A DNA stretch of 64,000 bases from an uncultured Selenomonadales bacterium. GTDB taxonomy: Bacteria > Bacillota > Negativicutes > Selenomonadales > Selenomonadaceae. The notes beneath the pieces were generated by a model. The model did not search any database. It saw only the letters and a list, made by a program, of their open reading frames with translations, and was not told the DNA's origin. Below are positions 3,564 to 63,116 of the stretch, piece by piece (positions within the stretch are counted from its first letter, which is position 1; each line of letters begins with the position of its first letter). Both the position numbers and the translations under genes were made by a program. The DNA lies in assembly GCA_946408105.1 (NCBI GenBank), contig CAMJQS010000001.1:4077-68076 (forward strand), in the 5' to 3' direction.

Positions 3564-3593
3564 CTAACAGCTAACAGCTAGAAGCTAACAGCT
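3564..3593. repeat. Tandem heptanucleotide array (CTAACAG x4, one variant CTAGAAG)
   Basis: Read directly between ubiD stop and ychF RBS: ctaacag ctaacag ctagaag ctaacag ct. Confidence 0.9.
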
Positions 3594-3614
3594 AAAAAAA
3601 CCGGAGGTTTTTTT

Positions 3615-4712
3615 ATGAGCAGTCTTGAAGTCGGTATCGTCGGCCTGCCCAATGTCGGCAAGTCGACGCTTTTTAACGCGATAACGAAGGCGGGCGCGGA
3701 GGCCGCCAATTATCCTTTCTGCACGATTGAACCCAACGTCGGAGTCGTCGCCGTGCCCGACGCTCGCCTGGAGGTTTTGACGAAACTTTACAGCTCGAAG
3801 AAGACGACGCCCGCTTCCGTTCGTTTCGTCGACATCGCGGGGCTCGTCAAGGGCGCGTCGAAGGGCGAAGGCCTCGGCAACAAATTTCTTGAACACATTC
3901 GGCAGGTCGACGCAATCGCTCACGTCGTGCGTTGCTTCGAGGACGAAAACATTTCACACGTCGCCGACACGATTGATCCTCTGCGCGACATCGACACGAT
4001 TCAAACGGAGCTGTGCCTGGCCGATTTGGACGTCGTGGACAAACGCCTGGCCAAGGTCGCAAAACTTTTGAAGTCGGGTAGCAAAGAGGCAAAGCTTGAG
4101 GCGGAAATTTTGGAGCGCGTGAAAAATTCTTTAGACGAGGCAAAACCCGCGCGAAGTTTGAACTTGAACGACGACGAACTTTTTTTGATTCGCGACGCAA
4201 ATTTGTTGACGCTCAAGCCGACGCTCTACATTGCAAACGTCGCCGAAGATGATTTGGCGGAAGAAAATTCTTACGTCAAAAAAGTTCGTGCGCTCGCCGC
4301 GGCGGAGGATGCTCAAGTCGTCGTCATTTGCGCGAAGGTCGAATCGGAAATCGCCGAACTCGACGCGGACGAGGCCAAAGAATTTTTGGCGGACTTGGGG
4401 CTCGAAAGTTCCGGGCTCGACAGATTGATTCACGCGGCGTTCGATTTGCTCGGCTTGATGACTTTCTTGACGGCCGGCCCCGACGAGTGCCGCGCCTGGA
4501 CGATTAAAAAGGGAACGCCTGCGGTTAAGGCGGCGGGAAAAATTCACAGCGACATTGAGCGCGGCTTCATTCGCGCGGAGATTGTAAACTACGACGACTT
4601 GATTAAGCTCGGCTCGGTCACTGCCGCCCGCGACAAAGGTCTCGTTCGCCTCGAAGGAAAAGATTACATCATGCAGGACGGCGACGTCACTTACTTCCGC
4701 TTCAACGTCTAA
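3615..4712 (+). CDS. ychF: Ribosome-binding ATPase YchF
   Basis: [25 protein letters not shown]-loop N-terminus, 365 aa, C-terminal ...[18 protein letters not shown] typical of YchF/TGS. Confidence 0.95.
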
Positions 4713-4719
4713 GAAAATC

Positions 4720-4754
4720 AAAAAGCGGCCTCGAATGTGAGACCGCTTTTTTTT
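4720..4754. terminator. Bidirectional rho-independent terminator between ychF and a convergent small gene
   Basis: GCGGCCTC-GAATGT-GAGACCGC stem (7 of 8 pairs), preceded by A5 and followed by T8. Confidence 0.8.
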
Positions 4755-4757
4755 GTT

Positions 4758-4916
4758 TTAAGATTTGCGCCCCGACTCTTTGCTGCCGTCGGTCGATTGT
4801 TTTTTGCGAACTTCGCCTTGCTTGCCGTCGCTTTTTTTGACGCCGCCTTGAGAGCCTTCCTCTTTAAGTTCACGAGCCAGATTTTTCAGCTTGCCCGCAA
4901 TGTTCGGTTTTGCCAT
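4758..4916 (-). CDS. Small Lys/Glu/Gly-rich hypothetical protein (52 aa)
   Basis: Internal ATG of ORF 4758..5063 preceded by GAGGTG at 6 nt; product MAKPNIAGKLKNLARELKEEGSQGG...; ends at the shared terminator. Confidence 0.5.
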   Translation of the reverse strand: MAKPNIAGKLKNLARELKEEGSQGGVKKSDGKQGEVRKKQSTDGSKESGRKS

Positions 4917-4950
4917 GCCAATCACCTCGCCGCAAATGTAACAAATTTTC

Positions 4951-4979
4951 TTGACGCAGTCAATCGCATAAAATAAAAT
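4951..4979 (+). promoter_or_regulatory. Sigma-70-like promoter upstream of the csoR-like gene
   Basis: TTGACG - 17 nt - TAAAAT read directly, 27 nt upstream of the ATG at 5006. Confidence 0.5.
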
Positions 4980-5005
4980 TTCCAAAAACTTTTCGGAGGG
5001 CAACA

Positions 5006-5314
5006 ATGCACGAACACAAATTGGAAGACGGCACGACGATTTGTCACAGCCACACGCACACACAAACCAAGGCAGTTTTGAATCGCATGGCGCGGCTCAT
5101 CGGTCACCTCGAATCGACAAAGCGAATGATTGAAGACGGAAGAGACTGCGACGAAGTTTTGATTCAGCTGTCGGCCGTCGACGCCGCGATTAAAGCCGTC
5201 GGCCGAATCATTTTGAAAGACCACATCGAACATTGCATCGTTGAGGCCGTCAAGACCGGCGACACCGAAGCGATTGAACGACTCAACAAAGCCATAGAAA
5301 AATTTATCCGATAA
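5006..5314 (+). CDS. csoR: CsoR/RcnR-family metal-sensing transcriptional repressor
   Basis: 102 aa with His-rich N-terminus, ...RDCDEVLIQLSAV...KDHIEHC; Cys/His/Cys ligand pattern of copper-type CsoR. Confidence 0.8.
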   Translation: MHEHKLEDGTTICHSHTHTQTKAVLNRMARLIGHLESTKRMIEDGRDCDEVLIQLSAVDAAIKAVGRIILKDHIEHCIVEAVKTGDTEAIERLNKAIEKFIR

Positions 5315-6726: not shown

Positions 6727-7092
6727 ATGGCGGAATCAGGTGAATATCGCTCGACTCTTACGCGAATCATGATTATCGCGACACTCGGCGGTCTGTTGTT
6801 CGGTTATGATACGGGCGTCGTCAACGGCGCGTTGCCTTTCATGGCGGCTCCCGACCAGCTCAATCTTGACCCGTTGCAAGAAGGCATGGTCGTTTCGGCT
6901 CTGCTCGTCGGCGCGGCCGTCGGTTCGTTCTGCGGCGGCAAACTCGCTGACTATCAGGGACGCAAAACGAATATTCTTTGGTTGTCGGTTATCTTTTTTG
7001 TATCGACGTTGGGTTATTCGCTCGCTCCGAGTTTCCACGTCATGTTGGTTTCAAGGTTTGTACTTGGACTTGCGGTCGGCGGCGCGTCAAAA
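6727..7092 (+). pseudogene. N-terminal remnant (~121 codons, TM1-4) of an MFS sugar-porter gene
   Basis: LGGLLFGYDTGVVNGALPF...GRKTNILWLSVIFF...SRFVLGLAVGGAS sugar-porter signatures, then the frame runs into unrelated sequence and stops at 7134. Confidence 0.8.
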
Positions 7093-8029
7093 GTACTGAT
7101 ATTTACTCGACGTTCTTGTAACCCTGTCTTGTGACGACTCTTTTAAGCGTTGTTATGCCAACATCAAATTTTCTGGAGAAGGCGGCGAGGCTGAACTCTT
7201 TGTCGCGAGGAATGTAATGCGCGCGAATGTAACGAACGTCATCTTCCGTCAACTTTGCTCGCGGATTGGCGCAACCGATTTTCTTCATGCCGTTTCTGAC
7301 TGCGTGTTTCTGATTCTCGCTGTTGGTCGCCCAATTCAAGTTCCAAACGCAGTTGTTTGAAGGGTCATTGTTCTCGTGGTTGACGAGAGGTTTTCCTTCG
7401 GTATTCGGCAAAAAACTTTTCGCGACGACGATGTGAAGACCGACGCACTTGCGCTCACCGTCTTTAGCCAAAGAAACTTGAATGTATCCATCCTTGATGA
7501 CGACGGGCTTTCGGATTATCTTCCTTACCGTTACTTTGTTGCAGTAAAAACTTTTGACTCTGCCGTAATTGCTGACTTGATAATGCTCTTCGTAGCCGGC
7601 AATGTCGCGCCACTCTTCATGAGGAAAGTCCTCAAGCTCGCACCAAACATTTAAATCCGCTCGCAAGGTGGCGACGGCGCAGTTGAGCTTAGAGATAAAA
7701 ATTTTGTCTTCGACGCGGGCATCGGTCGGCAACGCAGACAAACTCTGCAGAAAACTTTTCGCTTCGGCGACAGTGAACTCGAAGGGCTGAGGAGCCAAGG
7801 GAATGTTCTTCATCTCGTTCCAGTTCGCGAGGGTGAACTTTACCGCCTTTTTCACAGCGAGCGGCAAGTTCGAATAGAATTCCACAAAAATGTTTCTCGC
7901 TTCTTCTACGTTCATAAAAATCGCTCCTTTGTGCTTGACGCAACACGCCGAAACGTTTAGAATCAGAAAAAATTTTTGACTCGGTGTTTCGTGTGCAGTT
8001 AAGTTTTAGCAAACCTAATTTAGCACAAA
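7093..8029. mobile_element. HNH/NUMOD4 endonuclease cassette occupying the place of the missing MFS gene interior
   Basis: Lies exactly between the N- and C-terminal MFS remnants; bounded by similar GC-rich strings GCGGTCGGCGGCGCGTCAA (7072..7090) and GCGGGCGGCGGGTCAA (8030..8045). Confidence 0.55.
7103..7915 (-). CDS. Free-standing HNH homing-type endonuclease (NUMOD4 + HNH + C-terminal HTH-like region)
   Basis: EEWRDIAGYEEHYQVSNYGRVKS (NUMOD4-like), VNHENNDPSNNCVWNLNWATNSENQKHA (HNH), 270 aa, RBS AAAGGAG. Confidence 0.85.
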   Translation of the reverse strand: MNVEEARNIFVEFYSNLPLAVKKAVKFTLANWNEMKNIPLAPQPFEFTVAEAKSFLQSLSALPTDARVEDKIFISKLNCAVATLRADLNVWCELEDFPHEEWRDIAGYEEHYQVSNYGRVKSFYCNKVTVRKIIRKPVVIKDGYIQVSLAKDGERKCVGLHIVVAKSFLPNTEGKPLVNHENNDPSNNCVWNLNWATNSENQKHAVRNGMKKIGCANPRAKLTEDDVRYIRAHYIPRDKEFSLAAFSRKFDVGITTLKRVVTRQGYKNVE

Positions 8030-9263: not shown

Positions 9264-10112
9264 ATGAAGAGTGTCGACCCCGGCATATTGAGCCATTCGG
9301 AATGCTTTACCTTTCAACCTTCGGAAGTCGCCGCAAAGAGGATGAAATACCTCACATGGTGTGGCCATTATTTTTGCACGAACAGCTATTTTATGGAGCG
9401 CGATACTTATCCTTACGTGCTGGTCATCTTCGTGCGCGAAGGCAACATGGACGTTCGCTACTGCGGAAAAAATTATCTTATCGGCAAGGGCGACGTTCTT
9501 TTGATTGATTGCGTCTACCCGCATTATTATCGCGCTCACGACGGCCTGGAATTTTTGTACATGCACTTCGACGGCGTTTGCTCCCACGAAGTCACCGAGC
9601 TGATTATCCAAAACAACAACAGCCCCGTCTTCCGACGCTCGCACAATCTTAAAGTCGGGCAAGAAATTTTCGACTGTGTGAAATTTTTCAGCAAGGGCGG
9701 CATGACAAATATTTTCCTGGACGCTTTCCGCATTGAACGAATTTTATATTTGCTCTCGTGTGAAGCGGAAGAAAAAATTATCGAGACTTCGCCCATGGAA
9801 AAAATCATCACGCACATTCACGAAAATTTTACGCGGACGATCACGGTCGAGGAGCTGGCAAAAATTGCAAACGTCAGCACGAGTTATTTGGCTCACGCCT
9901 TCAAAAAACAAACCGGCTACGCGCCGGTTGAATATGTCATTAAAATGCGCATGGAACGCGCGATGATGTTGCTCACGCACTCAAGCAAGACCGTCGCCGA
10001 AATTTCGGAAGAGGTCGGCTATGATTCTTTGCCCGCGTTCATAAAAATTTTTAAGCGCAAGACCAATTACTCGCCGAGCGTCTATCGCAAACTTCAGAAG
10101 TCAAATCCTTGA
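9264..10112 (+). CDS. AraC-family transcriptional regulator (cupin sensor + HTH)
   Basis: C-terminal ...ITVEELAKIANVSTSYLAHAFKKQTGYAPVEYVIKMRMERAMMLLTHSSKTVAEISEEVGYDSLPAF AraC HTH pair. Confidence 0.9.
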   Translation: MKSVDPGILSHSECFTFQPSEVAAKRMKYLTWCGHYFCTNSYFMERDTYPYVLVIFVREGNMDVRYCGKNYLIGKGDVLLIDCVYPHYYRAHDGLEFLYMHFDGVCSHEVTELIIQNNNSPVFRRSHNLKVGQEIFDCVKFFSKGGMTNIFLDAFRIERILYLLSCEAEEKIIETSPMEKIITHIHENFTRTITVEELAKIANVSTSYLAHAFKKQTGYAPVEYVIKMRMERAMMLLTHSSKTVAEISEEVGYDSLPAFIKIFKRKTNYSPSVYRKLQKSNP

Positions 10113-10773
10113 CGACTTCGCCCGCCAAAATCAAACCGGCGACACTCGGCACGAAGGCAGCGGAGCCGATAAAATTTTTCACGGGGCGCGGCGTCTCGTC
10201 CGACCAAACGACTTTCAAATTTTTTATGCCGCGCTCTTTTAATTTTTTGCGCAAAATTTTTGCGACGGGGTCGACGGACGTTTGAAAAATATCCGCGACT
10301 TTAAATTTCGTCGGGTCAAGTTTGTTGCCCGCGCCCATGCTCGAAATAATTTTTATCTCGCGGCGCGCGCACTCCTCGACCAAAAAAATTTTCGCCGCCA
10401 ACGTGTCAATCGCGTCGACGACGTAATCGTATCGGCAAATAAAAAAATCCTCGACGTGTTCGTCGGGCAGAAAAAATTTTTGAATCGTATCGACTCGCGC
10501 GGCGGGGTTAATGTCAAAAATTCTCTCGCGCATGACTTCGACTTTTGACTTGTCGACCGTGGACGTGAGCGCGTGAAGTTGTCGGTTGATGTTCGTTTCG
10601 TCGATGTCGTCTTTGTCAATCAAAACCAAATGGCCGACGCCCGAACGAGCCAGAGCCTCGACCGCGAACGAGCCGACGCCGCCCACGCCGAACACCGCGA
10701 CCGTCGCCGCGTTGAGTTTGGAAAAATTTTCTTCGCCGATTAAAATTTTCAGCCGCTGAAATCTGTCGTTCAT
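10051..10773 (-). CDS. tcdA: tRNA threonylcarbamoyladenosine dehydratase (ThiF/E1-like, TcdA/CsdL)
   Basis: MNDRFQRLKILIGEENFSKLNAATVAVFGVGGVGSFAVEALARSGVGHLVLIDKDDIDETNINRQ; start at internal ATG with RBS AAGAGGAA. Confidence 0.8.
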   Translation of the reverse strand: MNDRFQRLKILIGEENFSKLNAATVAVFGVGGVGSFAVEALARSGVGHLVLIDKDDIDETNINRQLHALTSTVDKSKVEVMRERIFDINPAARVDTIQKFFLPDEHVEDFFICRYDYVVDAIDTLAAKIFLVEECARREIKIISSMGAGNKLDPTKFKVADIFQTSVDPVAKILRKKLKERGIKNLKVVWSDETPRPVKNFIGSAAFVPSVAGLILAGEVVKDLTSEVCDRRSASNWSCA

Positions 10774-10917
10774 GAATTCCTCTTTGCAAAAAATTTTTAA
10801 CAACAAACGAAATAATCTCGGCGCGGCGACTGACTAAAAATTTTTGAACACTCGAACGCGTCAGCTGTTCCGCCGCTTTCAAAGCGGCCGCCGATTAAAA
10901 TTTTCAGCCGCTGAAAT
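10734..10917. repeat. Gene-boundary cassette E: 126-bp insert (10763..10888) flanked by perfect 29-bp direct repeats (10734..10762 and 10889..10917)
   Basis: Both copies read cgccgattaaaattttcagccgctgaaat. The left copy is codons 5-14 of tcdA. The right copy follows an ATG that overlaps the ftsZ stop as ATGA. Confidence 0.9.
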
Positions 10918-10918
10918 T

Positions 10919-12100
10919 TCATTTGTCATTTCTCGGACGGAGAGTGAACGTCGGCAGCTGAAATTTATTTTCGGGCGGAGGCTGCGGCTTGGGTGCCTCG
11001 AAGTTGAAACCTTTCGACACTGTGATGTTCGATTGCGGGACTTCGATCGTCGGCGACTTGAGCGCGAGGCTGTCGGCAAAATCCGTGGCGATAATCGTCG
11101 CTTGAATCGTTCCGTTCATGCTCTTATCAATCACCGTGCCCAAAATTATATTCACGTCGTCTTCGGTCTGGCTGAAGATGTAACTTGCGGCGGCGTTCAC
11201 GTCGTGAATCGGTAAAGTTTCGTCGCCGGTGATGTTCAAAATAATTCCGCGCGCGCCCTTCAAAGATTTATCAATCAACGGACTTTGAATCGCTTCTTTG
11301 ACGGCCTGCACCGCGCTGATGTTGCTTCTGCCGATGCCGAGGAGCGCGTCGCTGGATTCGCTTTGACGGAAAATCGTCGTCATGTCCGCGAAGTCAACAT
11401 TAATCACGCCCGTCGTCAAAATCAATTCGGCCACGCAACGAATCGCCTGACGCAAAACAGAATCGGCCGCGTTGAAGGCGTCGACCATGTTCAGATTTTT
11501 ATTTTCGGGGAGCTTCATCAAGTTATCGTTCTTCACGACAATCAGCGCGTCCATGTAAGATTGCATGCGGACGATGCCTTCGTTGGCGATGCGTTGCTTG
11601 CGTCGACCTTCAAAGCCGAAAGGAAGCGTGACGACTCCGACAGTCAACATGCCGAGTTCTTTTGCCAGGCGAGCCACAATCGGAGCCGCGCCCGTGCCGG
11701 TGCCGCCGCCCATTGCCGCCGTGATAAAAATCATGTCCGCGCCGACCATCATTTCCTTCAGGCGTTCGGAATCGTTTTTGGCAGCCTGTTCGCCCAAAGC
11801 AACCGAACCGCCCGTGCCGCGTCCTTTGGTGAGCTGTTCGCCGATTTGCGCAATGCGAATCTTGTCCGTGTTTGAAAAGCTCAACGCGTGCGAGTCGGTG
11901 TTGACTGCGACCAATTCAATTTCCAAAAAATCACTCTCGGCAATTCGTTTCAAGACGCTGTTGCCGCCGCCGCCCACGCCGAAAACTTTTATCGTGACGA
12001 GGGCTCTTTTTATTGCCGCGTCGTCTTCGGCCTTCTGCCGGTCTTTATTTTGGCGAAGTTTTTTCAATGCTTCCTTGATTGCCGCATCGTTAGCCCCCAT
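10919..12100 (-). CDS. ftsZ: Cell-division GTPase FtsZ (about 25-aa N-terminal extension)
   Basis: KVFGVGGGGNS, AAMGGGTGTGAAP tubulin signature, C-terminal LPTFTLRPR peptide; ATG at 12100 preceded by GGAAGGGAAAG. Confidence 0.9.
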   Translation of the reverse strand: MGANDAAIKEALKKLRQNKDRQKAEDDAAIKRALVTIKVFGVGGGGNSVLKRIAESDFLEIELVAVNTDSHALSFSNTDKIRIAQIGEQLTKGRGTGGSVALGEQAAKNDSERLKEMMVGADMIFITAAMGGGTGTGAAPIVARLAKELGMLTVGVVTLPFGFEGRRKQRIANEGIVRMQSYMDALIVVKNDNLMKLPENKNLNMVDAFNAADSVLRQAIRCVAELILTTGVINVDFADMTTIFRQSESSDALLGIGRSNISAVQAVKEAIQSPLIDKSLKGARGIILNITGDETLPIHDVNAAASYIFSQTEDDVNIILGTVIDKSMNGTIQATIIATDFADSLALKSPTIEVPQSNITVSKGFNFEAPKPQPPPENKFQLPTFTLRPRNDK

Positions 12101-12224
12101 AAACTTTCTTTCCCTTCCAAAATTTTTCAATCAATCTTCGACGCGCAAAAAATTTTTCCTTCATTGCGCCCTACTATAAAAAAATCCTATTTATTTTACA
12201 AAATTTTTTCGCTAAACCTATCGG

Positions 12225-12233: not shown

Positions 12234-12320
12234 GTTTGAATATAAAGGTTTGTTATAATACGCAGGTATCATGATACCATAAAACATCTCTTTTCTACGT
12301 GAAAGAAAAAGTTTGCGTTA

Positions 12321-12362
12321 AAAAGCTCACGTCAATTTATCTTTAACGGCGTGAGTTTTTTT
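12321..12362. terminator. Bidirectional terminator downstream of the EamA gene
   Basis: CTCACGTC - 14-nt loop - GGCGTGAG stem flanked by A5 and T7. Confidence 0.7.
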
Positions 12363-12372
12363 ATGCCAAAAT

Positions 12373-13251
12373 TCACAGAGATTTTTTTATCAGCGACCAC
12401 TGCGCCGCGAGCATTCCGATTAACATCAAAACGCAACCGAAAATTTCCCGCGAAGTCATAATTTCTCCGAGCAACAGCCAACCCGCCAACGCTCCGAAAA
12501 TTGCCTCAAAGCTCATCAAGATTGCGGCGGTCGCCGGCTCCGCGTATCGTTGCCCGTAATTTTGCAAAGTGAACGCCACGGCCGAACTCATCACGCCGCC
12601 GTAAAGAATCGGGAACCACGCGTTGAGCATTGCGGAAAATTTTGGAGCCTCAAGCGCAAACATCGCCGCGAAACTCAAAATCATCACGATAAAAATTTGC
12701 GCGGCGGACAGTTCGATTAAGTCGACCTTCGAGGCGAATCGGTCAATCAATAAAATTTGCGCCGTCCAAACAAATGCGCTTACAAAAAGTATCGCGTCGC
12801 CGAGTTGGATTGAAAAACTTTCGCCGATTGCCAAAAGATACAGCCCGACGAGCGCGAGACCCGCGCCCAACCAATTTTCCCGCCGAATTATTTTCCCGAA
12901 AAGTTTTGCGCCGAGCGGAACGAACACGATGTAAAGACACGTGATGAACGCAGCCTTGCCCGCCGTCGAATATTGCAGCGCGATTTGTTGCATGGAGCTT
13001 GCCGCGAACAACACGACGCCGATTAACAGCCCGATTAAAAATCCGCGCCGATAATTTTTTTTCCGCCGTTCGACCGCCCGTTGCTTGCGCGTGAAAATCA
13101 AAAGCGCGACCAACGACAAAAAGCCCGCCGAATATCTTGCCGCCGCGTAGGAGAAGGGGCCGAGGCCGTCCATGCCTTCGAGCTGTGCAACGAACGTCGT
13201 GCCCCAAAAAAACGCCGCGCCCAAAAGCATCAGCGTTCCTTTTATCTGCAT
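12373..13251 (-). CDS. EamA/DMT-family transporter
   Basis: 10-TM hydrophobic profile, MQIKGTLMLLGAAFFWGTTFVAQ start, RBS GAGGAGGAA; 292 aa. Confidence 0.8.
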   Translation of the reverse strand: MQIKGTLMLLGAAFFWGTTFVAQLEGMDGLGPFSYAAARYSAGFLSLVALLIFTRKQRAVERRKKNYRRGFLIGLLIGVVLFAASSMQQIALQYSTAGKAAFITCLYIVFVPLGAKLFGKIIRRENWLGAGLALVGLYLLAIGESFSIQLGDAILFVSAFVWTAQILLIDRFASKVDLIELSAAQIFIVMILSFAAMFALEAPKFSAMLNAWFPILYGGVMSSAVAFTLQNYGQRYAEPATAAILMSFEAIFGALAGWLLLGEIMTSREIFGCVLMLIGMLAAQWSLIKKSL

Positions 13252-19435: not shown

Positions 19436-20110
19436 TTGGAGATGATAATTTTGAAAGTCGAAGAAATTTTTTTCCGAGATATGTATCACCAAATTTGTTT
19501 GCTCACGGACGCGGCCTTGGCCGGAAAATTTATCGACATGCTGGAAATGGACGACGAGAAACCCGACGGACTTTTGGCTTACGGTTACATTGATAAGGAC
19601 GCGGGCTTCACGTTCAGCATTTTGGGCGGCGCGAAAACTTCGGGCGGCAAGCTGAAAATTTTTCCGATAAACTACAAAGCGGCGGCTGTCGTTCGGCGCG
19701 GCGCAACTGCCGAGGCCGACGTAAAAATTTTGACGGACGATTACGCGCTGGCCTTCCGCGACCGAATGCAAATGATTAACGACACGTACGCCGTCGACGA
19801 CGCAAGAGAGCAGACGCGCTTCATAAAAAATCTCGACGCCTTCCGCCACCCCGATTATCCCGACGATGTTGTCGTTTATTTTTTCCACGCGGAAGACAAG
19901 CCCGAACTTTTGTGGGTGCGCTGCTTGAGCGTCGACGAAAATATTTTGAAGGGCGAACTTTTGAATGAGCCGACGAAAAATTTTGGCTGTCATGCGGGCG
20001 ACAAAATTAAATTCGGCGTCGCGAAAATCGGCGAGCAAAATATTTTGCTCCACCTGCCGACAACGGCGGGCAACGTGACGTTGCATCCAACGGACGCGCT
20101 TGAGCAATAA
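19436..20110 (+). CDS. Hypothetical protein (224 aa)
   Basis: Ordinary amino-acid composition on the + strand, whereas the antisense ORF is Arg-rich; last ~13 codons lie in a repeat-family copy. Confidence 0.6.
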   Translation: MEMIILKVEEIFFRDMYHQICLLTDAALAGKFIDMLEMDDEKPDGLLAYGYIDKDAGFTFSILGGAKTSGGKLKIFPINYKAAAVVRRGATAEADVKILTDDYALAFRDRMQMINDTYAVDDAREQTRFIKNLDAFRHPDYPDDVVVYFFHAEDKPELLWVRCLSVDENILKGELLNEPTKNFGCHAGDKIKFGVAKIGEQNILLHLPTTAGNVTLHPTDALEQ

Positions 20111-20144
20111 AAAATTTTCAGCGAATTTGCCGCGCTCAAACGTT
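20070..20144. repeat. Repeat-family copy A (palindrome GCAACGTGACGTTGC plus ~60-bp tail), inverted relative to copies B and C
   Basis: Aligns by eye with reverse complements of 25263..25337 and 31230..31304. Confidence 0.85.
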
Positions 20145-20171
20145 ATAAAAATTTTTCACGGAGGTAATTTT

Positions 20172-24461: not shown

Positions 24462-25259
24462 ATGAAAAAATTTTTCCTGATAATTTTCGTCGCGATTTTC
24501 TTTCTGCCGCTCGGAAAACTTGAGGCGGGACACTTGGAAGATATTTCTTCGCGCGGAACAATCCGAATCGGCACGACGGGCGATTATATCCCGATGTCTT
24601 ATCTCAACCCCGCGACGGGCGAGTACGAGGGAATCGACGCGGAACTTTCAAAAATTATCGCGGCGTCTTTGGGCGTGAAGATTGAATACGTTCCGACGAC
24701 GTGGCCGACGCTCTCCGCCGATTGTCAAGCCAACAAGTTCGACATTGCGCTTTGCGGTATCTCCAGAAATTTTGCGCGGGCGAAGACAATGGCGATGAGC
24801 GACGCTTACGGCGAAGGGCTCTTCGGCAAAACAATTCTCTGCCGCAAGACCGACGCAAAAAAATTTAAAAGCGTTGCCGACCTGAACAAGCCGACCGTCC
24901 GAATCATGATTAACCCCGGCGGCACGAACGAAAAATTTGCCCGCGCCAATCTTCCGAACGCAAAACTTATCGTCCACGAATCCAACGCAGACATCCCGAT
25001 TCAAATCGCCGAGGGCAACGCCGACATCATGATAACAGAGACCGTCGAGGCTGTCAGTTGGGTTAAGCGCGAACCGAGGCTTGCCGCGCCGCTCGTCGAC
25101 AAACCTTTCGAGGGCACGAAACATTCTTGCGGAATTTTGTTGCAGAAGGGCGACCAAGAATTTTTAAACTACGTGAATTTTGTTTTGGCGGAGCTGCGTA
25201 TGAACGGCACGCTTGAAAAGTTGGAAATAAAATATTTGGGACGCAAGCCGGCAAAATAA
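24462..25259 (+). CDS. Periplasmic substrate-binding protein, family 3 (amino-acid/cyclohexadienyl-dehydratase-like)
   Basis: Signal peptide, GTIRIGTTGDYIPMSYLN...GIDAELSKIIAASLGVKIEYVPTTW. Confidence 0.75.
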   Translation: MKKFFLIIFVAIFFLPLGKLEAGHLEDISSRGTIRIGTTGDYIPMSYLNPATGEYEGIDAELSKIIAASLGVKIEYVPTTWPTLSADCQANKFDIALCGISRNFARAKTMAMSDAYGEGLFGKTILCRKTDAKKFKSVADLNKPTVRIMINPGGTNEKFARANLPNAKLIVHESNADIPIQIAEGNADIMITETVEAVSWVKREPRLAAPLVDKPFEGTKHSCGILLQKGDQEFLNYVNFVLAELRMNGTLEKLEIKYLGRKPAK

Positions 25260-25383
25260 TCGACAACATTTAAACGCGGCGAGCGGCTGAAAATTTTTAC
25301 GGCTCAAGCGCGTTCATTGGATGCAACGTCACGTTGCCGGCACGCTTGAGAAATTGGAAACAAAATATTTGGGAAGGAAACCG
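25205..25383. repeat. Gene-boundary cassette B: 87-bp insert (25251..25337) flanked by a 46-bp direct repeat with 6 mismatches (25205..25250 and 25338..25383)
   Basis: cggcacgcttgaaaagttggaaataaaatatttgggacgcaagccg versus cggcacgcttgagaaattggaaacaaaatatttgggaaggaaaccg; insert ends in GCAACGTCACGTTGC (25323..25337). Confidence 0.9.
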
Positions 25384-29586: not shown

Positions 29587-29596
29587 GTTCAAATTG

Positions 29597-29707
29597 TTTG
29601 GAAAAAATCTTGCCGCTTTAAAAGCGGCGGAACAGCGGACGCGTTTAACGTTAAAAAATTTTTAGCCGCTCGCCGCGCTCAAACGTTTTGGAAAAAATCT
29701 TGCCGCT
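29597..29707. repeat. Gene-boundary cassette D: 69-bp insert (29618..29686) flanked by perfect 21-bp direct repeats (29597..29617 and 29687..29707)
   Basis: Both copies read tttggaaaaaatcttgccgct; right copy encodes ...RQDFFQ of the nif3-like gene. Confidence 0.9.
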
Positions 29708-30467: not shown

Positions 30468-31228
30468 AAAGTTTCCTCCAAAAATTTAAGCACGTCGTCG
30501 AAATTTTTTGCGAGCTGCGGATAAAAAATTTTCGGGCGGTCAATCATGACGACGGGCAAGTTTAAAATTTTCGCCGCCTCAAGTTTCGTATCCGCGCCGC
30601 CGATTTGCCCGCTGTTTTTCGTGACGACGACTTCGGCCTGTGCGTGTTTGAAAAGTTCGGCGTTGAGTTCGGTCGAGAAGGGTCCTTGCATGGCGACAAT
30701 TTGTTTCGGCAACAAGCCCAAAGCTTCGCACTGACTTAAAACGTCGGCGGTCGGCAAAACGCGCGCGGTCAAGTTGCAACCTTTGAGCAGGTCGACAAAA
30801 ATTTTCAAGCTGCGGCTGCCCGTCGTGAGATAAATATTTTTTCCGAGCTGCGACGCTTTGAGCGCGGCCGCCTCGTAGCTTTCGACGCGGAAAATTTTTT
30901 CGTAGTCAAAAATAATTTCCGCGCGTTCGTAGCGGACGTAAAAAATTTTTGCGGCTTGGGCGGCGGCGATTGCGTTGGCGGAAATATTTTTTGCGTAAGG
31001 GTGGCTGGCGTCGACGAGGAAATTAAATTTTTCTTCGCGCAAAATTTTTTCCAACTCGTCGCGGTCGAGCGGCTTGTCGTTAATCTTGACGGCCGCGCAA
31101 CTCTCCAAAAGTTTTCGTCCGTAATCGCTGACGACAGAGGCCGTCACGTCGAAATTTTTTCCCGACAAAAATTCTGCGAGCCGGCGTCCGTCTTCCGTTC
31201 CCGCGATTAAAAAAATTTTTTTGTTCAT
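30464..31228 (-). CDS. cbiJ: (Cobalt-)precorrin-6A reductase
   Basis: MNKKIFLIAGTEDGRRLAEFL..., 254 aa, ...VVVTKNSGQIGGADTKLEAAKILNLPVVMIDRP. Confidence 0.8.
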   Translation of the reverse strand: MNKKIFLIAGTEDGRRLAEFLSGKNFDVTASVVSDYGRKLLESCAAVKINDKPLDRDELEKILREEKFNFLVDASHPYAKNISANAIAAAQAAKIFYVRYERAEIIFDYEKIFRVESYEAAALKASQLGKNIYLTTGSRSLKIFVDLLKGCNLTARVLPTADVLSQCEALGLLPKQIVAMQGPFSTELNAELFKHAQAEVVVTKNSGQIGGADTKLEAAKILNLPVVMIDRPKIFYPQLAKNFDDVLKFLEETL

Positions 31229-31323
31229 GATAACTCCGAGCGCGGTGAGCGACCGAAAAATTTTTTCGACTCAAGCGCGACCATTGGATGCAACGTCACG
31301 TTGCAAAAATTTTTTTGTTCATG
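31211..31323. repeat. Gene-boundary cassette C: 75-bp insert (31230..31304) flanked by perfect 19-bp direct repeats (31211..31229 and 31305..31323)
   Basis: Both copies read aaaaatttttttgttcatg (reverse complement of the cbiJ start ATGAACAAAAAAATTTTT); insert ends in GCAACGTCACGTTGC (31290..31304). Confidence 0.9.
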
Positions 31324-44484: not shown

Positions 44485-45621
44485 TCATCTCCCGAAGCTT
44501 TTTAGAATCGCGCAAATTTTTCTCACGTCGTCCTCGGCAAGTTCGCCGTACATGGGCAAGCTTAAAACTTGTCGGCCGATAAGATTTGCGGCGGGAAGAT
44601 TGTCGGAGCTCGACGAATTCAGCTGACGATAGCAAGTGTACTCGCTGCACAGCGGATGAAAATATTTTCGCGTGTAGACGTTGAAATTTTTAAAAGCCTC
44701 GTGAACAAAATCCCTCGACCGCCCGAAAATTTTTTCGTCGACGCGCACGACGTAATATTGATAATTGAGCTTGACGTCGGCTGCGCATTTCGGCAAGAGT
44801 TTCAAGCCTTCGACCTCGGAAAGTTCTTCGTTATAAATTTCGTGCAGACGAATTCTTTTTTGCCGTTCGCCTTCGACGTAGTTGAGCATGATTCGACCAA
44901 TCGCCGCGCGCACTTCGTCGAGCTTGCCGTTTATGCCGGGCATGACGACTTCTTCCTCGTTCTTGATTCCGAAATTTTTCAGCAGGTCAATTCGTTGCTT
45001 AACGTGTTCGTTCTTCATGACGAGCGCGCCGCCTTCGACGGTGTGATAAAGTTTCGTCGCGTGAAAACTCAGCATGGAAATGTCGCCGAAGTTCCCGATG
45101 CCTTGCCCGCCGATTTCCACGCCGAACGCGTGAGCCGCGTCGTAGACAACGCGCAAGCCGTAACGGTCGGCAACCTCTTGAATTTTTTCAACGGCGCAGG
45201 GCGTGCCGAAAACGTGAACCGCCAAAATTGCCGTTGTGCGCGGCGTTATCATCGATTCGATTTTGTCCGCGTCGATGTTCATGGTCTCGGCGTCCACGTC
45301 GCAAAAAATCGGCGTGATGTTATTCCAACTCAAAACGTGGGGCGTGGCCGCGAACGTGAAAGGCGTCGTGATGACTTCGCCGCTCAACCTTAGACTTTGG
45401 CACGCAACCATTAGCGCGATTGTTCCGTTGTTGAACAGCGACAGGTGCGGAACCTTCAAAAAATTTTTCAGCTCGCGCTCAAGCATCGTGTGTTGCGGGC
45501 CGTTGTTCGTCAGCCACTTTGAATTCCAGATGTCGCGCAATTTTTCCGTGACTTCCTCAATCGTCGGGAAAACCGGCCGCGTCACGAAAATTACTTTTTC
45601 AAACGGCTCAAGATTTTTCAT
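44485..45621 (-). CDS. DegT/DnrJ/EryC1-family PLP-dependent sugar aminotransferase
   Basis: ...NGPQHTMLERELKNFLKVPHLSLFNNGTIALMVA..., ...SMLSFHATKLYHTVEGGAL (PLP lysine). Confidence 0.9.
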   Translation of the reverse strand: MKNLEPFEKVIFVTRPVFPTIEEVTEKLRDIWNSKWLTNNGPQHTMLERELKNFLKVPHLSLFNNGTIALMVACQSLRLSGEVITTPFTFAATPHVLSWNNITPIFCDVDAETMNIDADKIESMITPRTTAILAVHVFGTPCAVEKIQEVADRYGLRVVYDAAHAFGVEIGGQGIGNFGDISMLSFHATKLYHTVEGGALVMKNEHVKQRIDLLKNFGIKNEEEVVMPGINGKLDEVRAAIGRIMLNYVEGERQKRIRLHEIYNEELSEVEGLKLLPKCAADVKLNYQYYVVRVDEKIFGRSRDFVHEAFKNFNVYTRKYFHPLCSEYTCYRQLNSSSSDNLPAANLIGRQVLSLPMYGELAEDDVRKICAILKSFGR

Positions 45622-45800
45622 CGGTCGTCTCCTTTTTATGTGTTTGTATTCTACTTTTTCTTTGCGCGCCCTTTTTAGCTGTTAGCTGTCAGCTGTTAGT
45701 AATTAGAAAATCGAACAGCTTTAAACTAACAGCTATCAGCTAAACATGACGGCCTCTGATTACGCGGCGCGGTCTTCTTCATCGGTCGTCTCCTTTTTAT
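45617..45800. repeat. Gene-boundary cassette F: 138-bp insert (45640..45777) flanked by perfect 23-bp direct repeats (45617..45639 and 45778..45800)
   Basis: Both copies read ttcatcggtcgtctcctttttat. The left copy is the RBS plus ATG of the DegT gene. The right copy encodes ...KKETTDEE of the M48 gene. Confidence 0.9.
45677..45746. repeat. Hairpin built from heptanucleotide repeats: (AGCTGTT/AGCTGTC)x3 facing (CTAACAG/CTATCAG)x2-3
   Basis: Read directly; the arms are reverse complements of each other and of the array at 3564..3593. Confidence 0.85.
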
Positions 45801-47529
45801 TTTTTTTCTTGCGAATTTTTTCGGCCGTCTTCGGGTCAATTTTTTCCAAATAATTCAGCGGGACGACGCGCGGATTTTTTTTCGTCAGCTCGTAAAGTCT
45901 TTTGTAACTTTCCAAGGCCTTGTCGGTTTGCTTTGTCTCGTCGAAAATTTCTGCGCGCAACTTGTAAGCAATCGGATTTTTTTCGTCGAGAGCAACGGCG
46001 CGTTCAATGTCCTCAAGCGCAAGTTCCAACTCGCCGCGCATGTGTCGAACGTCCGCGCGATTTAAAAAATTATACAAATTCTTCGGGTCTTTATCAACAG
46101 CCGCGTTCGCGTCGACAAGTGCGCCGTCGTAGTCTCCGCAAATCGCCTTCGCCCGTCCGCGAATGCCGAGACACTCCGCCACGTCGTCCTGGTTTTTTGC
46201 GCGAAGGGCGCGTTCAATTTGTTTAAGCGCAAGTTCGCCCTGGCCGTGGTCGTTGTAGATGTCCGCGTTGATTCGCAGCTGCGTGGCGGCCTTGGCTTTG
46301 GCGGCGTCGGCTTCGTCACGTACCTTCGCCCAAAAAATTTTCCTCTTTTCGTCCGCCTCAAAAATTCTTTCACGCGTCCGAGGACTTTCGTATTTGTAAG
46401 CAAGCTCGACGAGCGTCTGAACTTTTTCGCCGAGGTTGTACAGATTCGACAGGGCGCGCAGCTCACGATAAGCAAGTTCGTCGTTCAAAAAATCTGTCGT
46501 GTTCCCGACGCGCCGAAAGTTCCAGCCGTCAATCGAATCGTAATCGTGGAAAGCCTTCGACAGGCCGCCCGCGAAGTAGTAAGCGTTAATCGCCGCGCTC
46601 GTGGGGTCGTCGCCCGTGTTCATCGAGTAAAAAATTTCGCGGCCGTCAATCAAAACTTTATAGGCGCGGTCGACTTTGCGAACGATGACATGGCCGCCGC
46701 CGTATTCGCTCATCATCTGCGACAATTTTGCTTCGCGCTTGTCGGTGTCGGGGTGGTCGCTGAAAGTTTGCTCGTCGGGTTTGTCGTGCGCGTCGAACTC
46801 CAAAAAGTCGCGTGTCTCGTATCGAACGTAATAGCCCAGGCGATTCATCGAGGCCGCGCCGCCGCCGGGATTAAATCCCGCGCTCGTCATCAGATAAAAA
46901 CCGCCCTCGTCGGCCTCGTATTCGGCGGGCACGTTAATATTTTTGGCGATTGAGTAATCGACCATCGCGGAAAATTTATTCCAGTCAATGTTCCTGCCGT
47001 TGTCGGCGTGCAATCCGACGATCATCGCGCCGAGCTGTTGAGCGACGGCTTGCGCGTAACTTTTAGCGGAGTGTTGCTCAAGGCCGTGAGTCATCTCGTG
47101 GGCAAGGACTGCGGCAATTTGATTTTCGTCGCCGTTCAAATTTCTGACGAGCCCGCGATTAATGCTGATGTAGTTCATCGGGTAACACGCGGCGTTAAAT
47201 TTTTCGTCGTCGTTTACGCTCCACACGAACGGCAGAGAGTTTGCTTTGAGTTCGTATTGGCCGTTGTTTACGAGACGAGTCATCACCGAGTCGACGAGTT
47301 CAACGTCGCGTTTGTTTTTGTCGACGCCGTTTTTTTCCATGTCCTGTCTGCGAACGGCCATTTGCGCGTCGACGTTGTTGCCGAGCGCGAGCATTTCCCT
47401 AAGCGTCGACTGATACGCCGCCAAAACTCCGAGAGCCTCCGCCGCGATTGCCCAGCCGTCTGCCGCGAAAACTTTCACGGGATTTAAAAGCGTCGCGACC
47501 GTCACGAGCACGATTAAAAATTTTTTCAT
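45760..47529 (-). CDS. Secreted M48-family Zn metallopeptidase with C-terminal TPR repeats
   Basis: Signal peptide MKKFLIVLVTVATLLNPVKVFA, AAVLAHEMTHGLEQH (HExxH), TPR-like C-terminal half. Confidence 0.85.
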   Translation of the reverse strand: MKKFLIVLVTVATLLNPVKVFAADGWAIAAEALGVLAAYQSTLREMLALGNNVDAQMAVRRQDMEKNGVDKNKRDVELVDSVMTRLVNNGQYELKANSLPFVWSVNDDEKFNAACYPMNYISINRGLVRNLNGDENQIAAVLAHEMTHGLEQHSAKSYAQAVAQQLGAMIVGLHADNGRNIDWNKFSAMVDYSIAKNINVPAEYEADEGGFYLMTSAGFNPGGGAASMNRLGYYVRYETRDFLEFDAHDKPDEQTFSDHPDTDKREAKLSQMMSEYGGGHVIVRKVDRAYKVLIDGREIFYSMNTGDDPTSAAINAYYFAGGLSKAFHDYDSIDGWNFRRVGNTTDFLNDELAYRELRALSNLYNLGEKVQTLVELAYKYESPRTRERIFEADEKRKIFWAKVRDEADAAKAKAATQLRINADIYNDHGQGELALKQIERALRAKNQDDVAECLGIRGRAKAICGDYDGALVDANAAVDKDPKNLYNFLNRADVRHMRGELELALEDIERAVALDEKNPIAYKLRAEIFDETKQTDKALESYKRLYELTKKNPRVVPLNYLEKIDPKTAEKIRKKKNKKETTDEEDRAA

Positions 47530-63102: not shown

Positions 63103-63116
63103 GAAAATCATCTCCT

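Follow-up and report, generated by a model that had tools for sequence, protein, structure and literature searches.

A small hairpin-headed repeat probably inserted between formerly overlapping ftsZ and tcdA genes of a rumen Selenomonadaceae bacterium

[quoted passage not shown] Repetitive extragenic palindromic sequences (REP, and REPIN) are mobilized by RAYT proteins, which are IS200/IS605-like Y1 transposases, and are characterized by a conserved 5' GTAG, the absence of target duplication, and the presence of a RAYT gene. The present study deals with a small repeat located between ftsZ and tcdA in an uncultured Selenomonadales bacterium of the family Selenomonadaceae. The window, i.e., the whole stretch of 64,000 nucleotides that was analysed, corresponds to positions 4,077 to 68,076 of contig CAMJQS010000001.1 (assembly GCA_946408105.1, forward strand). 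The family to which this repeat belongs does not fit the standard MITE, REP, or insertion sequence (IS) schemes, and its host is an uncultured, ecologically important rumen genus.

Like MITEs, these repeats are small, non-coding, present in multiple copies, and polymorphic between relatives, with filled and empty sites. Both kinds of element are found at gene boundaries, where they can separate co-transcribed genes, supply expression signals, or create small open reading frames (ORFs). The family differs from MITEs by the lack of inverted repeats, a single hairpin end, a variable 3' end, and long duplications of variable length (9-90 nt). With REP and REPIN sequences, it shares short extragenic palindromic hairpins with covarying stems, many copies in both orientations, and a frequent position just after stop codons, whereas in the present family the hairpin is abutted by long duplications and followed by conserved sequence without palindromes over about 45-110 nt, and no GTAG-type motif precedes the head. 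Rickettsia palindromic elements also are small palindrome-containing repeats that land in the start of coding sequences without destroying the gene, but they are translated in frame within the host protein, whereas here a duplicated 5' end preserves the gene and the live ORF does not include the element.

To our knowledge, nothing like the target-primed reverse transcription of short and long interspersed nuclear elements (SINEs and LINEs) is known in bacteria. The likeness to this process lies in the variable target duplications, the lack of inverted repeats, one defined and one variable end, and insertion in both orientations. Nevertheless, LINEs and SINEs have a fixed 3' end and are truncated at the 5' end, whereas the 5' end is the fixed one here, and no reverse transcriptase was found in the sequences examined. 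The only documented bacterial precedent found for long and variable direct repeats at insertion sites is provided by IS1549 and IS1634 (IS1634 family), which generate direct repeats of 8-514 bp on insertion and for which no mechanistic model has been given (PMC2266710). Those are autonomous elements of 1.5-2 kb with a DDE transposase and inverted repeats, whereas the repeats described here are non-coding sequences of about 100 nt with neither of them. No description of the family in Quinella or Selenomonadaceae was found in the literature and, as far as could be found, long variable duplications, a single hairpin terminus, and the duplication of gene starts are undescribed for MITE or REP elements. 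A single small repeat between two genes is ordinary; the duplications of the family and its single hairpin end are the unusual features.

The insert at the tcdA junction is very probably one copy of a small, non-coding repeat family of rumen Quinella-like Selenomonadaceae. The probability assigned to this reading, roughly 0.8, covers the explanation as a whole, namely the membership of the family, an insertion with a 40-nt duplication into a compact junction, and the subsequent shortening of the relic. The locus lies on the minus strand, with ftsZ upstream and the ThiF-family gene tcdA downstream, and is organized as follows.

10919-12130, minus strand: ftsZ (Pfam Tubulin 1.7e-39 and FtsZ_C 3.3e-22), with its TGA stop at 10919-10921; an orthologue lies upstream of tcdA in 35 related loci
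10889-10922, minus strand: relic copy of the tcdA 5' end, 34 nt, ATGAAA + TTTCAGCGGCTGAAAATTTTAATCGGCG, holding the upstream copy of a 29-nt repeat (10889-10917)
10797-10922, minus strand: relic small ORF, 41 codons from the old coupled ATG through the element, with its stop at 10797-10799, 23 nt before the live ATG; translation predicted
10774-10888, minus strand: 115-nt repeat element forming the insert, with the duplicated 40-mer on both sides; homologous to four other copies in the window and about 65 in related loci
10734-10773, minus strand: live copy of the 40-mer, ATGAACGACAGA followed by the 29-nt repeat less its first, shared base; tcdA codons 1-13, the same as the middle 40-mer of contig L076
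10051-10773, minus strand: tcdA, 240 aa (Pfam ThiF 5.4e-39), with its ATG at 10771-10773

By orthology, the tcdA product would be a ThiF-family tRNA threonylcarbamoyladenosine dehydratase, an enzyme activity that is predicted. This is the NCBI name of its homologues at 80-95% identity, which number in the hundreds in rumen metagenomes, the named ones belonging to Selenomonadaceae or Quinella metagenome-assembled genomes. An exact search with the TcdA protein of the window yielded no further contig with an identical protein. Judging from the N-termini of the homologues and from the position of the Shine-Dalgarno sequence, the true start of tcdA is the ATG at 10771-10773. The mechanically called ORF (10051-10806, minus strand) begins at a TTG (10806) within the element, adding the residues MLLKIFCKEEF; thus, automatic callers may mis-annotate starts beside such elements.

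Two identical copies of the 29-nt sequence CGCCGATTAAAATTTTCAGCCGCTGAAAT form a direct repeat at 10734-10762 and 10889-10917 (100% identity, spacing of 155 nt); the chance expectation of such pairs in 64 kb is about 1e-10. As reported in the first-pass annotation of this DNA, the ATG at 10920-10922 overlaps the ftsZ TGA as ATGA, and the upstream 29-nt copy begins 1 nt past this TGA on the minus strand. The relic reads MKFQRLKILIGGRFESGG..., and the live tcdA reads MNDRFQRLKILIGEE from the ATG at 10771-10773, also as stated there. On the coding strand, the order is ...AAATGA (ftsZ stop with the overlapping ATG), AA-TTTCAGCGGCTGAAAATTTTAATCGGCG, then GCCGCTTTGAAAGCGGC GGAACAGCTGACGCG ... TCGCCGCGC ... 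AAGAGGAATTC, and finally ATGAACGACAGA-TTTCAGCGGCTGAAAATTTTAATCGGCG-AAGAAAAT.... All the further sequence features that had been singled out are present, including the hairpin GCCGCTTTGAAAGCGGC at 10872-10888, two A5T5-6 tracts, and AAGAGGAA at 10777-10784, 3 nt before the ATG. The near-palindrome TTTCAGCGGCTGAAA also exists, but it looks incidental, as it is not conserved in relatives, which have TTTCAACGACTTAAA and the like.

A scan of species-representative genomes provided 45 loci, of which the 35 with ftsZ directly upstream of tcdA constitute the comparison set; individual loci are designated below by L numbers. The ftsZ-tcdA junction is compact in 28 of these 35 genomes: the two genes overlap in 22 (21 as ATGA, one by 8 nt) and are separated by a spacer of 1-11 nt in six. 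The junction is also compact in L037 and L038, the most distant relatives (about 70% nucleotide identity), as well as in two of three more contigs encoding the closest TcdA proteins (L046 and L047, the latter overlapping), the third contig ending too near the start. The earlier claim that an insertion split a formerly compact, overlapping pair is borne out by these counts and, as read from the alignments, the ancestral junction is a compact one in which the tcdA ATG overlaps the ftsZ TGA as ATGA.

The N-termini of 120 TcdA homologues follow either M-x-D-x-[RK]-FQRL or M-[KR]-FQRL. The long form is encoded as ...AAATGAACGACAGATTTCAG in the compact loci L003 and L045, with ATGA overlapping the stop, and is also the form of the most distant relatives, while the short form (ATGAAATTT or ATGAGATTT) is 6 nt off the long one. 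The sequence ATGAACGACAGA+TTTCAG is the native tcdA start, the 12 nt of ATGAACGACAGA being identical in L003 and L045, where they overlap the ftsZ stop. The insert had been thought to bring a new start codon and three codons to tcdA; this is not so, since ATGAACGACAGA is ordinary tcdA sequence, present in L003 and L045 and in both flanks of the element in L076 and L007.

Two filled alleles, those of L076 and L007, bear this out. The first one, on a contig from a rumen metagenome that has 95.7% identity with the window across 818 nt, shows the layout ftsZ-ATGAGCGACAGA+28 nt / element / ATGAACGACAGA+28 nt / element / ATGGACGACAGA+28 nt-tcdA, i.e., three 40-mers and two elements with a unit of 155 nt. 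In L007, the same element head is found at the same point, AATCGGCG being directly followed by GCCGCTTTAAAAGCGGCGGAACAGC, and is flanked by a 40-nt repeat starting at the ATG, with 1 mismatch. Because both flanking copies in L076 and L007 hold the full 40-mer (ATGA[A/G]CGACA..TTTCA.CGG...AATCGGCG), the duplication was 40 nt and the insert 115 nt. The structure previously described as a 126-bp insert with a 29-bp target duplication is, therefore, a 115-nt element with a 40-nt duplication, in which the relic of the window is 6 nt shorter. The shared architecture of the filled alleles is visible in the alignment of the tcdA-junction inserts. The junction between AATCGGCG and GCCGCTTT is common to L007 and L076, which are independent assemblies and, on this sequence evidence, the pair of 29-nt repeats is not an assembly artefact. 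The 29-nt sequence differs at 1-3 positions even in the nearest relatives, L004 and L002, and the 29/29 identity within the window thus indicates that the pair, or its last homogenization, is young.

The 115-nt element comprises four parts.

10872-10888, minus strand: head hairpin GCCGCTTTGAAAGCGGC, 7-bp stem and 3-nt loop, forming the sharp 5' end of the element; -12.3 kcal/mol by RNA folding
10857-10871, minus strand: conserved box 1, GGAACAGCTGACGCG, family consensus [SR]AACAGCGGACGCG
10821-10829, minus strand: conserved box 2, TCGCCGCGC, with a CCGCG core invariant in the 15-copy alignment
10774-10820, minus strand: variable 3' tail, with the second A5T6 tract (10788-10798) and the Shine-Dalgarno sequence AAGAGGAA (10777-10784); aligns with the tails of L076, L007, L020, and L025 at the same junction

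As had been suggested, the insert brings in the hairpin as well as the A/T tracts and a new Shine-Dalgarno sequence. Its sole ORF is the relic reading through it, and it has no ORF of its own. The family consensus consists of the 7-bp stem and 3-nt loop, [SR]AACAGCGGACGCG (replaced by ATCCAAYGNNCGCGC in a second subtype), some 25-30 nt of variable sequence in which A5T5 is frequent, the motif (T)CGCCGCG, and a variable tail. This tail, often of the type ..CTCAAACGTT..A5T5..GGAGG, is A/T-rich and frequently ends with a Shine-Dalgarno-like GGAGG. Whereas the 5' end is constant, the 3' extent varies and the total length ranges from about 47 to about 135 nt, the shortest copies being of about 47-55 nt (L061, L066). 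No terminal inverted repeats were detected in the tcdA copy or in other copies, the head GCCGCTTTGAAAGCGGCGGAACAGC having no similarity to the reverse complement of the tail.

In 17 distinct hairpin variants, all but one of the 102 base pairs at stem positions 2-7 (101 of 102) obey Watson-Crick rules, and each position shows 2-4 pair types; the pairs were counted on loop-anchored windows, the MAFFT alignment of the hairpins being unusable. Pairing ends exactly at the element boundary. These compensatory changes in the stem, together with the stop of pairing at the boundary, indicate that the conserved entity is a nucleic-acid hairpin and not a sequence motif. The hairpin noted after ftsZ in the first-pass annotation is there, but the termination after ftsZ and the re-initiation associated with it, though they may occur, find no support. 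Going by its sequence, the head is not a canonical intrinsic terminator: it folds into a hairpin, but GGAACAGC follows and there is no U-tract. No terminator-like site is predicted in 10500-11200, nor any sigma-70 promoter in the insert. No Rfam 15 family matches the window at the gathering threshold, and none matches 10700-10960 at E<=1. A structured RNA extending over the whole element was considered and rejected, as the consensus fold of 15 copies retains only a 4-bp CGCG/CGCG stem without compensatory changes and the insert folds no better than its shuffles (z=-0.36).

The A/T tracts have a counterpart at the scale of the genome. The commonest 8-mer of the window is AAAATTTT, with 169 copies (26 per 10 kb) versus 9 for TTTTAAAA; base composition would predict about 1 copy, and a third-order Markov model 51. 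It occurs at 6-26 per 10 kb in Quinella-like relatives (L002, L007, L020, L025, L035, L037, L038) and at 0.5-1 per 10 kb in Clostridia outgroups (L040-L043), even at lower G+C. It is found inside genes in all frames, and the AnTn tracts of the insert exemplify this genome-wide signature.

Run against 0.97 Mb (the window plus 90 fetched loci), a profile made from 17 copies gave 75 matches, of which five are in the window. Searching metagenomes with the exact head sequence retrieved 42 rumen contigs, and no match to the element was obtained in viral contigs (exact head pattern) or in plasmids (blastn). Besides the tcdA-junction insert, the window carries the following copies.

20070-20164, plus strand: family copy directly upstream of a TTG-start gene; only GGAGG is common with empty sites, and the relic GGAGG is now GGCGG
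25242-25337, minus strand: family copy upstream of queA; 37-nt imperfect duplication at 25205-25241 and 25338-25374, with a single copy at the empty site L023:410-446
29612-29678, plus strand: family copy at the 3' end of a NIF3-family gene, in opposite orientation; the repeats 29589-29617 and 29679-29707 include the stop codon
31229-31304, minus strand: family copy at the start of cbiJ (precorrin-6x reductase); the repeats 31211-31229 and 31305-31323 duplicate CATGAACAAAAAAATTTTT, and the tail supplies GGAG

The live and relic ends of the NIF3-family gene encode ...QNV-stop and ...QTI-stop, respectively, so that the last codons of the gene now match the consensus element tail CTCAAACGTT. At cbiJ, a promoter-like TTGAAA-N17-TTAAAA ends about 7 nt upstream of the relic start, which lacks a Shine-Dalgarno sequence; for this reason cbiJ may originally have been leaderless. 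A further copy is located at the start of ychF in L031. Reading by eye also revealed a second overlapping gene pair split by the element, in L082 (about 700-860) and L084 (about 500-650), where the duplication TTGCTTGA, of 8 nt, runs precisely from the start codon (TTG) of the downstream gene to the stop codon (TGA) of the upstream one.

A statistically significant direct repeat ends at most 3 nt from the hairpin foot in 27 of the 70 heads examined. The lengths of the duplications are 12-90 nt across 23 distinct contexts, and several repeats of 5-11 nt were seen by eye; with this range of about 5-90 nt, the duplications are not of a fixed short length. The flanking repeats are true target duplications, since empty orthologous sites hold one copy, as at L021:573 (about 20 nt, six empty sites), at the 25.3k site of the window (37 nt), and at L036:10758 (about 11 nt). 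At the 20.07k site of the window and at L025:7626, filled and empty sites have only GGAGG in common.

Many duplications begin at the host start codon or at most 1 nt from it. This includes tcdA, cbiJ, L018, L007:8.08k, L058, and ychF in L031. The native ribosome-binding site is comprised within the duplication at L049, L073, L077, L009, and L080. In every start-codon case, the element is co-oriented with the gene and has a Shine-Dalgarno-like sequence at its 3' end; this pattern may be one of survivorship, in which only insertions leaving a working initiation region persist. In the 12 nt before the head, no target-site motif was found beyond a purine at -1 (51 of 64 heads). The octamer AATCGGCG (or AATCGGTG, AATCGGGCG) directly precedes a GCCGC-type hairpin at 3-4 unrelated targets, namely tcdA (window, L007, L076), L061, L007:8079, and L067, which is far above chance. 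About 10 of 64 heads stand exactly at a stop codon, either after TGA or TAA or between the TA and the G of TAG.

The relics do not keep their length. At the tcdA site, the relic measures 40 nt in L007 and L076, 34 nt in the window, and about 24 nt in L020, and it is absent from L025, the tails being still alignable. The tail-side junction of the NIF3 site is common to L089 and the window; the repeat of L089 is a perfect one of 35 nt, the relic of the window is about 25 nt shorter beside the hairpin, and a GCCGCT microhomology is found at the point of deletion in the window. Because relics shorten at both sites, part of the spread in duplication length results from erosion after insertion. The original length also varies, since short repeats that are perfect (18-20 nt) occur alongside long ones (60-90 nt). 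Duplication and element can, moreover, be arranged in tandem, as in L076 (positions 1-400, two elements, 155-nt unit), in L080 (133-nt unit), and partly in L018. The array of L080 (minus strand, about 4490-5020) consists of two elements and three copies of a duplication of about 72 nt at the start of a gmhB-like gene, while L018 (minus strand, about 12250-12520) shows a repeated unit of tail, ATG, and 5' codons without the hairpin.

A second, unrelated hairpin repeat family, of the AGCTAACAGCT type with a long palindrome, occurs in the window at 45640-45777 (minus strand) and 3564-3600 (plus strand), and a fragment of it lies just upstream of ychF. The 45.7-kb copy is flanked by a direct repeat of 23-46 nt (45614-45659 and 45775-45820, 80%) that contains the upstream stop, the ribosome-binding site, and the downstream ATG. 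Since this copy has one too, long flanking duplications are not limited to one family in this genome.

At the tcdA locus, the comparison of filled and empty alleles shows that the 115-nt element lies 40 nt inside tcdA with a copy of these 40 nt on each side, the left copy keeping the ftsZ stop and the right copy giving a complete tcdA. In the window, the left (relic) copy is 6 nt shorter, leaving the perfect 29-nt repeat, and in L076 the 155-nt unit has been amplified in tandem. As for the movement itself, a single-stranded copy of the element, made of RNA or DNA, would serve as template at a staggered break and be copied as far as the 5' end that the hairpin defines, without DDE cut-and-paste, and later deletions beside the hairpin would shorten the relic. 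Copy-and-paste through such a single-stranded intermediate is considered the likeliest way of movement, although its chances are put at clearly less than even. It is favoured because the hairpin 5' end is fixed while the 3' end varies, because the duplications always abut the hairpin and vary in length, and because there are no inverted repeats. A diversity-generating retroelement was also considered and rejected, since the mismatches between repeat copies, examined by eye, are not adenine-specific.

A bolder reading, quite improbable at present, is that the repeats constitute an undescribed kind of bacterial mobile element, propagated by single-stranded copying to the hairpin 5' end in a SINE-like or one-ended manner and not by a DDE reaction. 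If this were true, one-ended copying would give long variable duplications and, as a matter of routine, double the starts of genes, bring in Shine-Dalgarno sequences, separate genes that overlap, and leave small ORFs behind as relics. Were the mechanism of mobility new, it would be an added way for bacterial genomes to rewire translation-initiation regions and to create small ORFs.

The translation of tcdA presumably starts now from the element-borne AAGAGGAA and no longer from the overlapping ATGA. The relic ATG may still be used by ribosomes coming off ftsZ, which would translate 41 codons across the hairpin and terminate 23 nt short of the new ATG; the hairpin, for its part, may cause pausing in the ftsZ transcript or protect it. 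Two housekeeping genes coupled in translation would thus have been uncoupled without the loss of either gene, by means of a duplicated 5' end and a ribosome-binding site brought by the element. A relay upstream ORF, in which the relic stop would always lie just before the live start, was examined as a general device and rejected, the distances being 23, 115, -34, 67, 27, 26, 87, and 104 nt without any pattern; it is a possibility for the tcdA copy only.

Several observations weigh against the insertion history proposed for this junction and against the mode of movement. Deletion between the flanking repeats would exactly restore the compact site, so that compact relatives could be revertants; for this reason, the direction of change cannot be read from presence or absence alone. 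At tcdA, the head subtype (in L025) and the junction position (in L020 and L025) differ, which may reflect either one old insertion or several successive ones at a hot spot. A flanking repeat is missing from about half of the copies, and duplication is, therefore, either not obligatory or quickly erased. Clustering of the ORFs located up to 2.5 kb from the 70 heads brought together only orthologous housekeeping genes, no other ORF being recurrent there, and a crude motif scan of the 0.97 Mb detected no ORF with reverse-transcriptase motifs. All the functional consequences mentioned above are deduced from sequence alone. Lastly, the start of the 34-nt relic of the window, ATGAAA-TTTCAG, is that of the short compact alleles (MK alleles) in the nearest relatives L002, L004, and L015, a match that is a coincidence under a simple deletion in the relic and that may point to recombination or excision. 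Three options are possible for this relic: an independent loss of 6 nt, a recombination event joining a compact MK allele to a filled one, or the origin of the MK alleles themselves by deletion between the flanking repeats of a filled ancestor.

Recombination is the alternative that survives best. The filled allele might have spread between Quinella strains or species by homologous recombination, or the window itself might combine an MK compact allele on the left with an L076-like filled allele on the right, through a crossover in the 29-nt repeat. This is possible but remains on the doubtful side. In addition to accounting for the identity of the relic with the MK alleles, it would fit the fact that the head junction between AATCGGCG and GCCGCTTT is identical in L007 (83% nucleotide identity), while the nearer L002 (88%) is compact. 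Moreover, the last 20 nt of ftsZ plus ATGAAA in the window match L002, with 1 mismatch, better than the conspecific L076, with about 7 mismatches. However, the comparison with L076 relies on the 40 nt of ftsZ available in this contig, and no recombination breakpoint is signalled at the window junction against any species-level relative, the nearest one, L002, being 88% identical on both sides. Recombination can explain the spread of the allele but neither its first origin nor the occurrence of the same architecture at many unrelated loci.

The elements might also be miniature derivatives of a DDE insertion sequence making long and variable staggered cuts, as IS1549 or IS1634, in which case the repeats would be classical target-site duplications. 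The direct repeats reported for those two elements cover 8-514 bp (PMC2266710), and the duplications of the present family are likewise long and variable. Nonetheless, such a derivation is unlikely in view of the lack of terminal inverted repeats, the unrelated head and tail, the unfixed 3' end, and the absence of a transposase near the 70 copies. In the genome fragments available, no IS with matching ends lies near these copies or in the window, nor was a RAYT (Y1 transposase) gene seen in the fragments examined.

In the version of the first-pass annotation, a 126-bp cassette entered a compact MK junction with a 29-bp target duplication and delivered, besides a terminator hairpin and a ribosome-binding site, a new start codon with three more codons. 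This version retains in its favour the 29-nt length of the perfect repeat and the identity of the relic (ATGAAA plus the repeat) with the MK alleles L002, L004, and L015. It is nevertheless very improbable. Besides the native ATGAACGACAGA start of L003 and L045 and the 40-nt repeat of L076 and L007, it would imply an insert ending by chance in the gene's own ancestral first 12 nt, which is implausible, whereas copies at other loci do not end in ATGAACGACAGA; the lack of a U-tract and of any predicted terminator also speaks against it. Even less credit can be given to local tandem duplication or replication slippage followed by divergence, without any mobile element, as the origin of the 155-nt period. 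Tandem amplification of the unit in L076 and L080 would agree with it, and the near-palindrome in the 29-nt repeat could promote slippage, but the 115 nt are unrelated to the ftsZ 3' end or to tcdA and are homologous to the copies at the cbiJ start, at the NIF3 end, upstream of queA, and at the ychF start. Least credible is an artefact joining two strain variants via a shared k-mer, which a perfect repeat of exactly 29 nt (a common de Bruijn k) in a window apparently from an uncultured rumen organism might evoke, because the head junction recurs in two independent assemblies from other data sets (L007, L076) and homologous structures elsewhere have imperfect repeats of many lengths, impossible for such an artefact.

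From a practical point of view, relic starts and tandem units of this kind mislead gene callers, with wrong starts and spurious small ORFs, as well as metagenome assemblers.

Two other regions of the window are worth mentioning. An ORF of 270 aa at 7103-7915 (minus strand) contains NUMOD4 (4.8e-12) and HNH_3 (4e-5) domains, as found by a Pfam search on 30 ORFs of the window, and looks like a free-standing homing endonuclease. No element copy flanks it. It adjoins 6727-7134 (plus strand), apparently only the N-terminal 135 aa of a major facilitator superfamily (MFS) sugar transporter, which suggests that the transporter gene is interrupted. Farther along, the ORF at 60667-63111 (minus strand) contains coding repeats at 60900-63020 with a period of 54 nt (AATCGTTNCCCGCNCC...), in at least 7 units of 63-87% identity, and probably encodes a repeat-containing surface protein.

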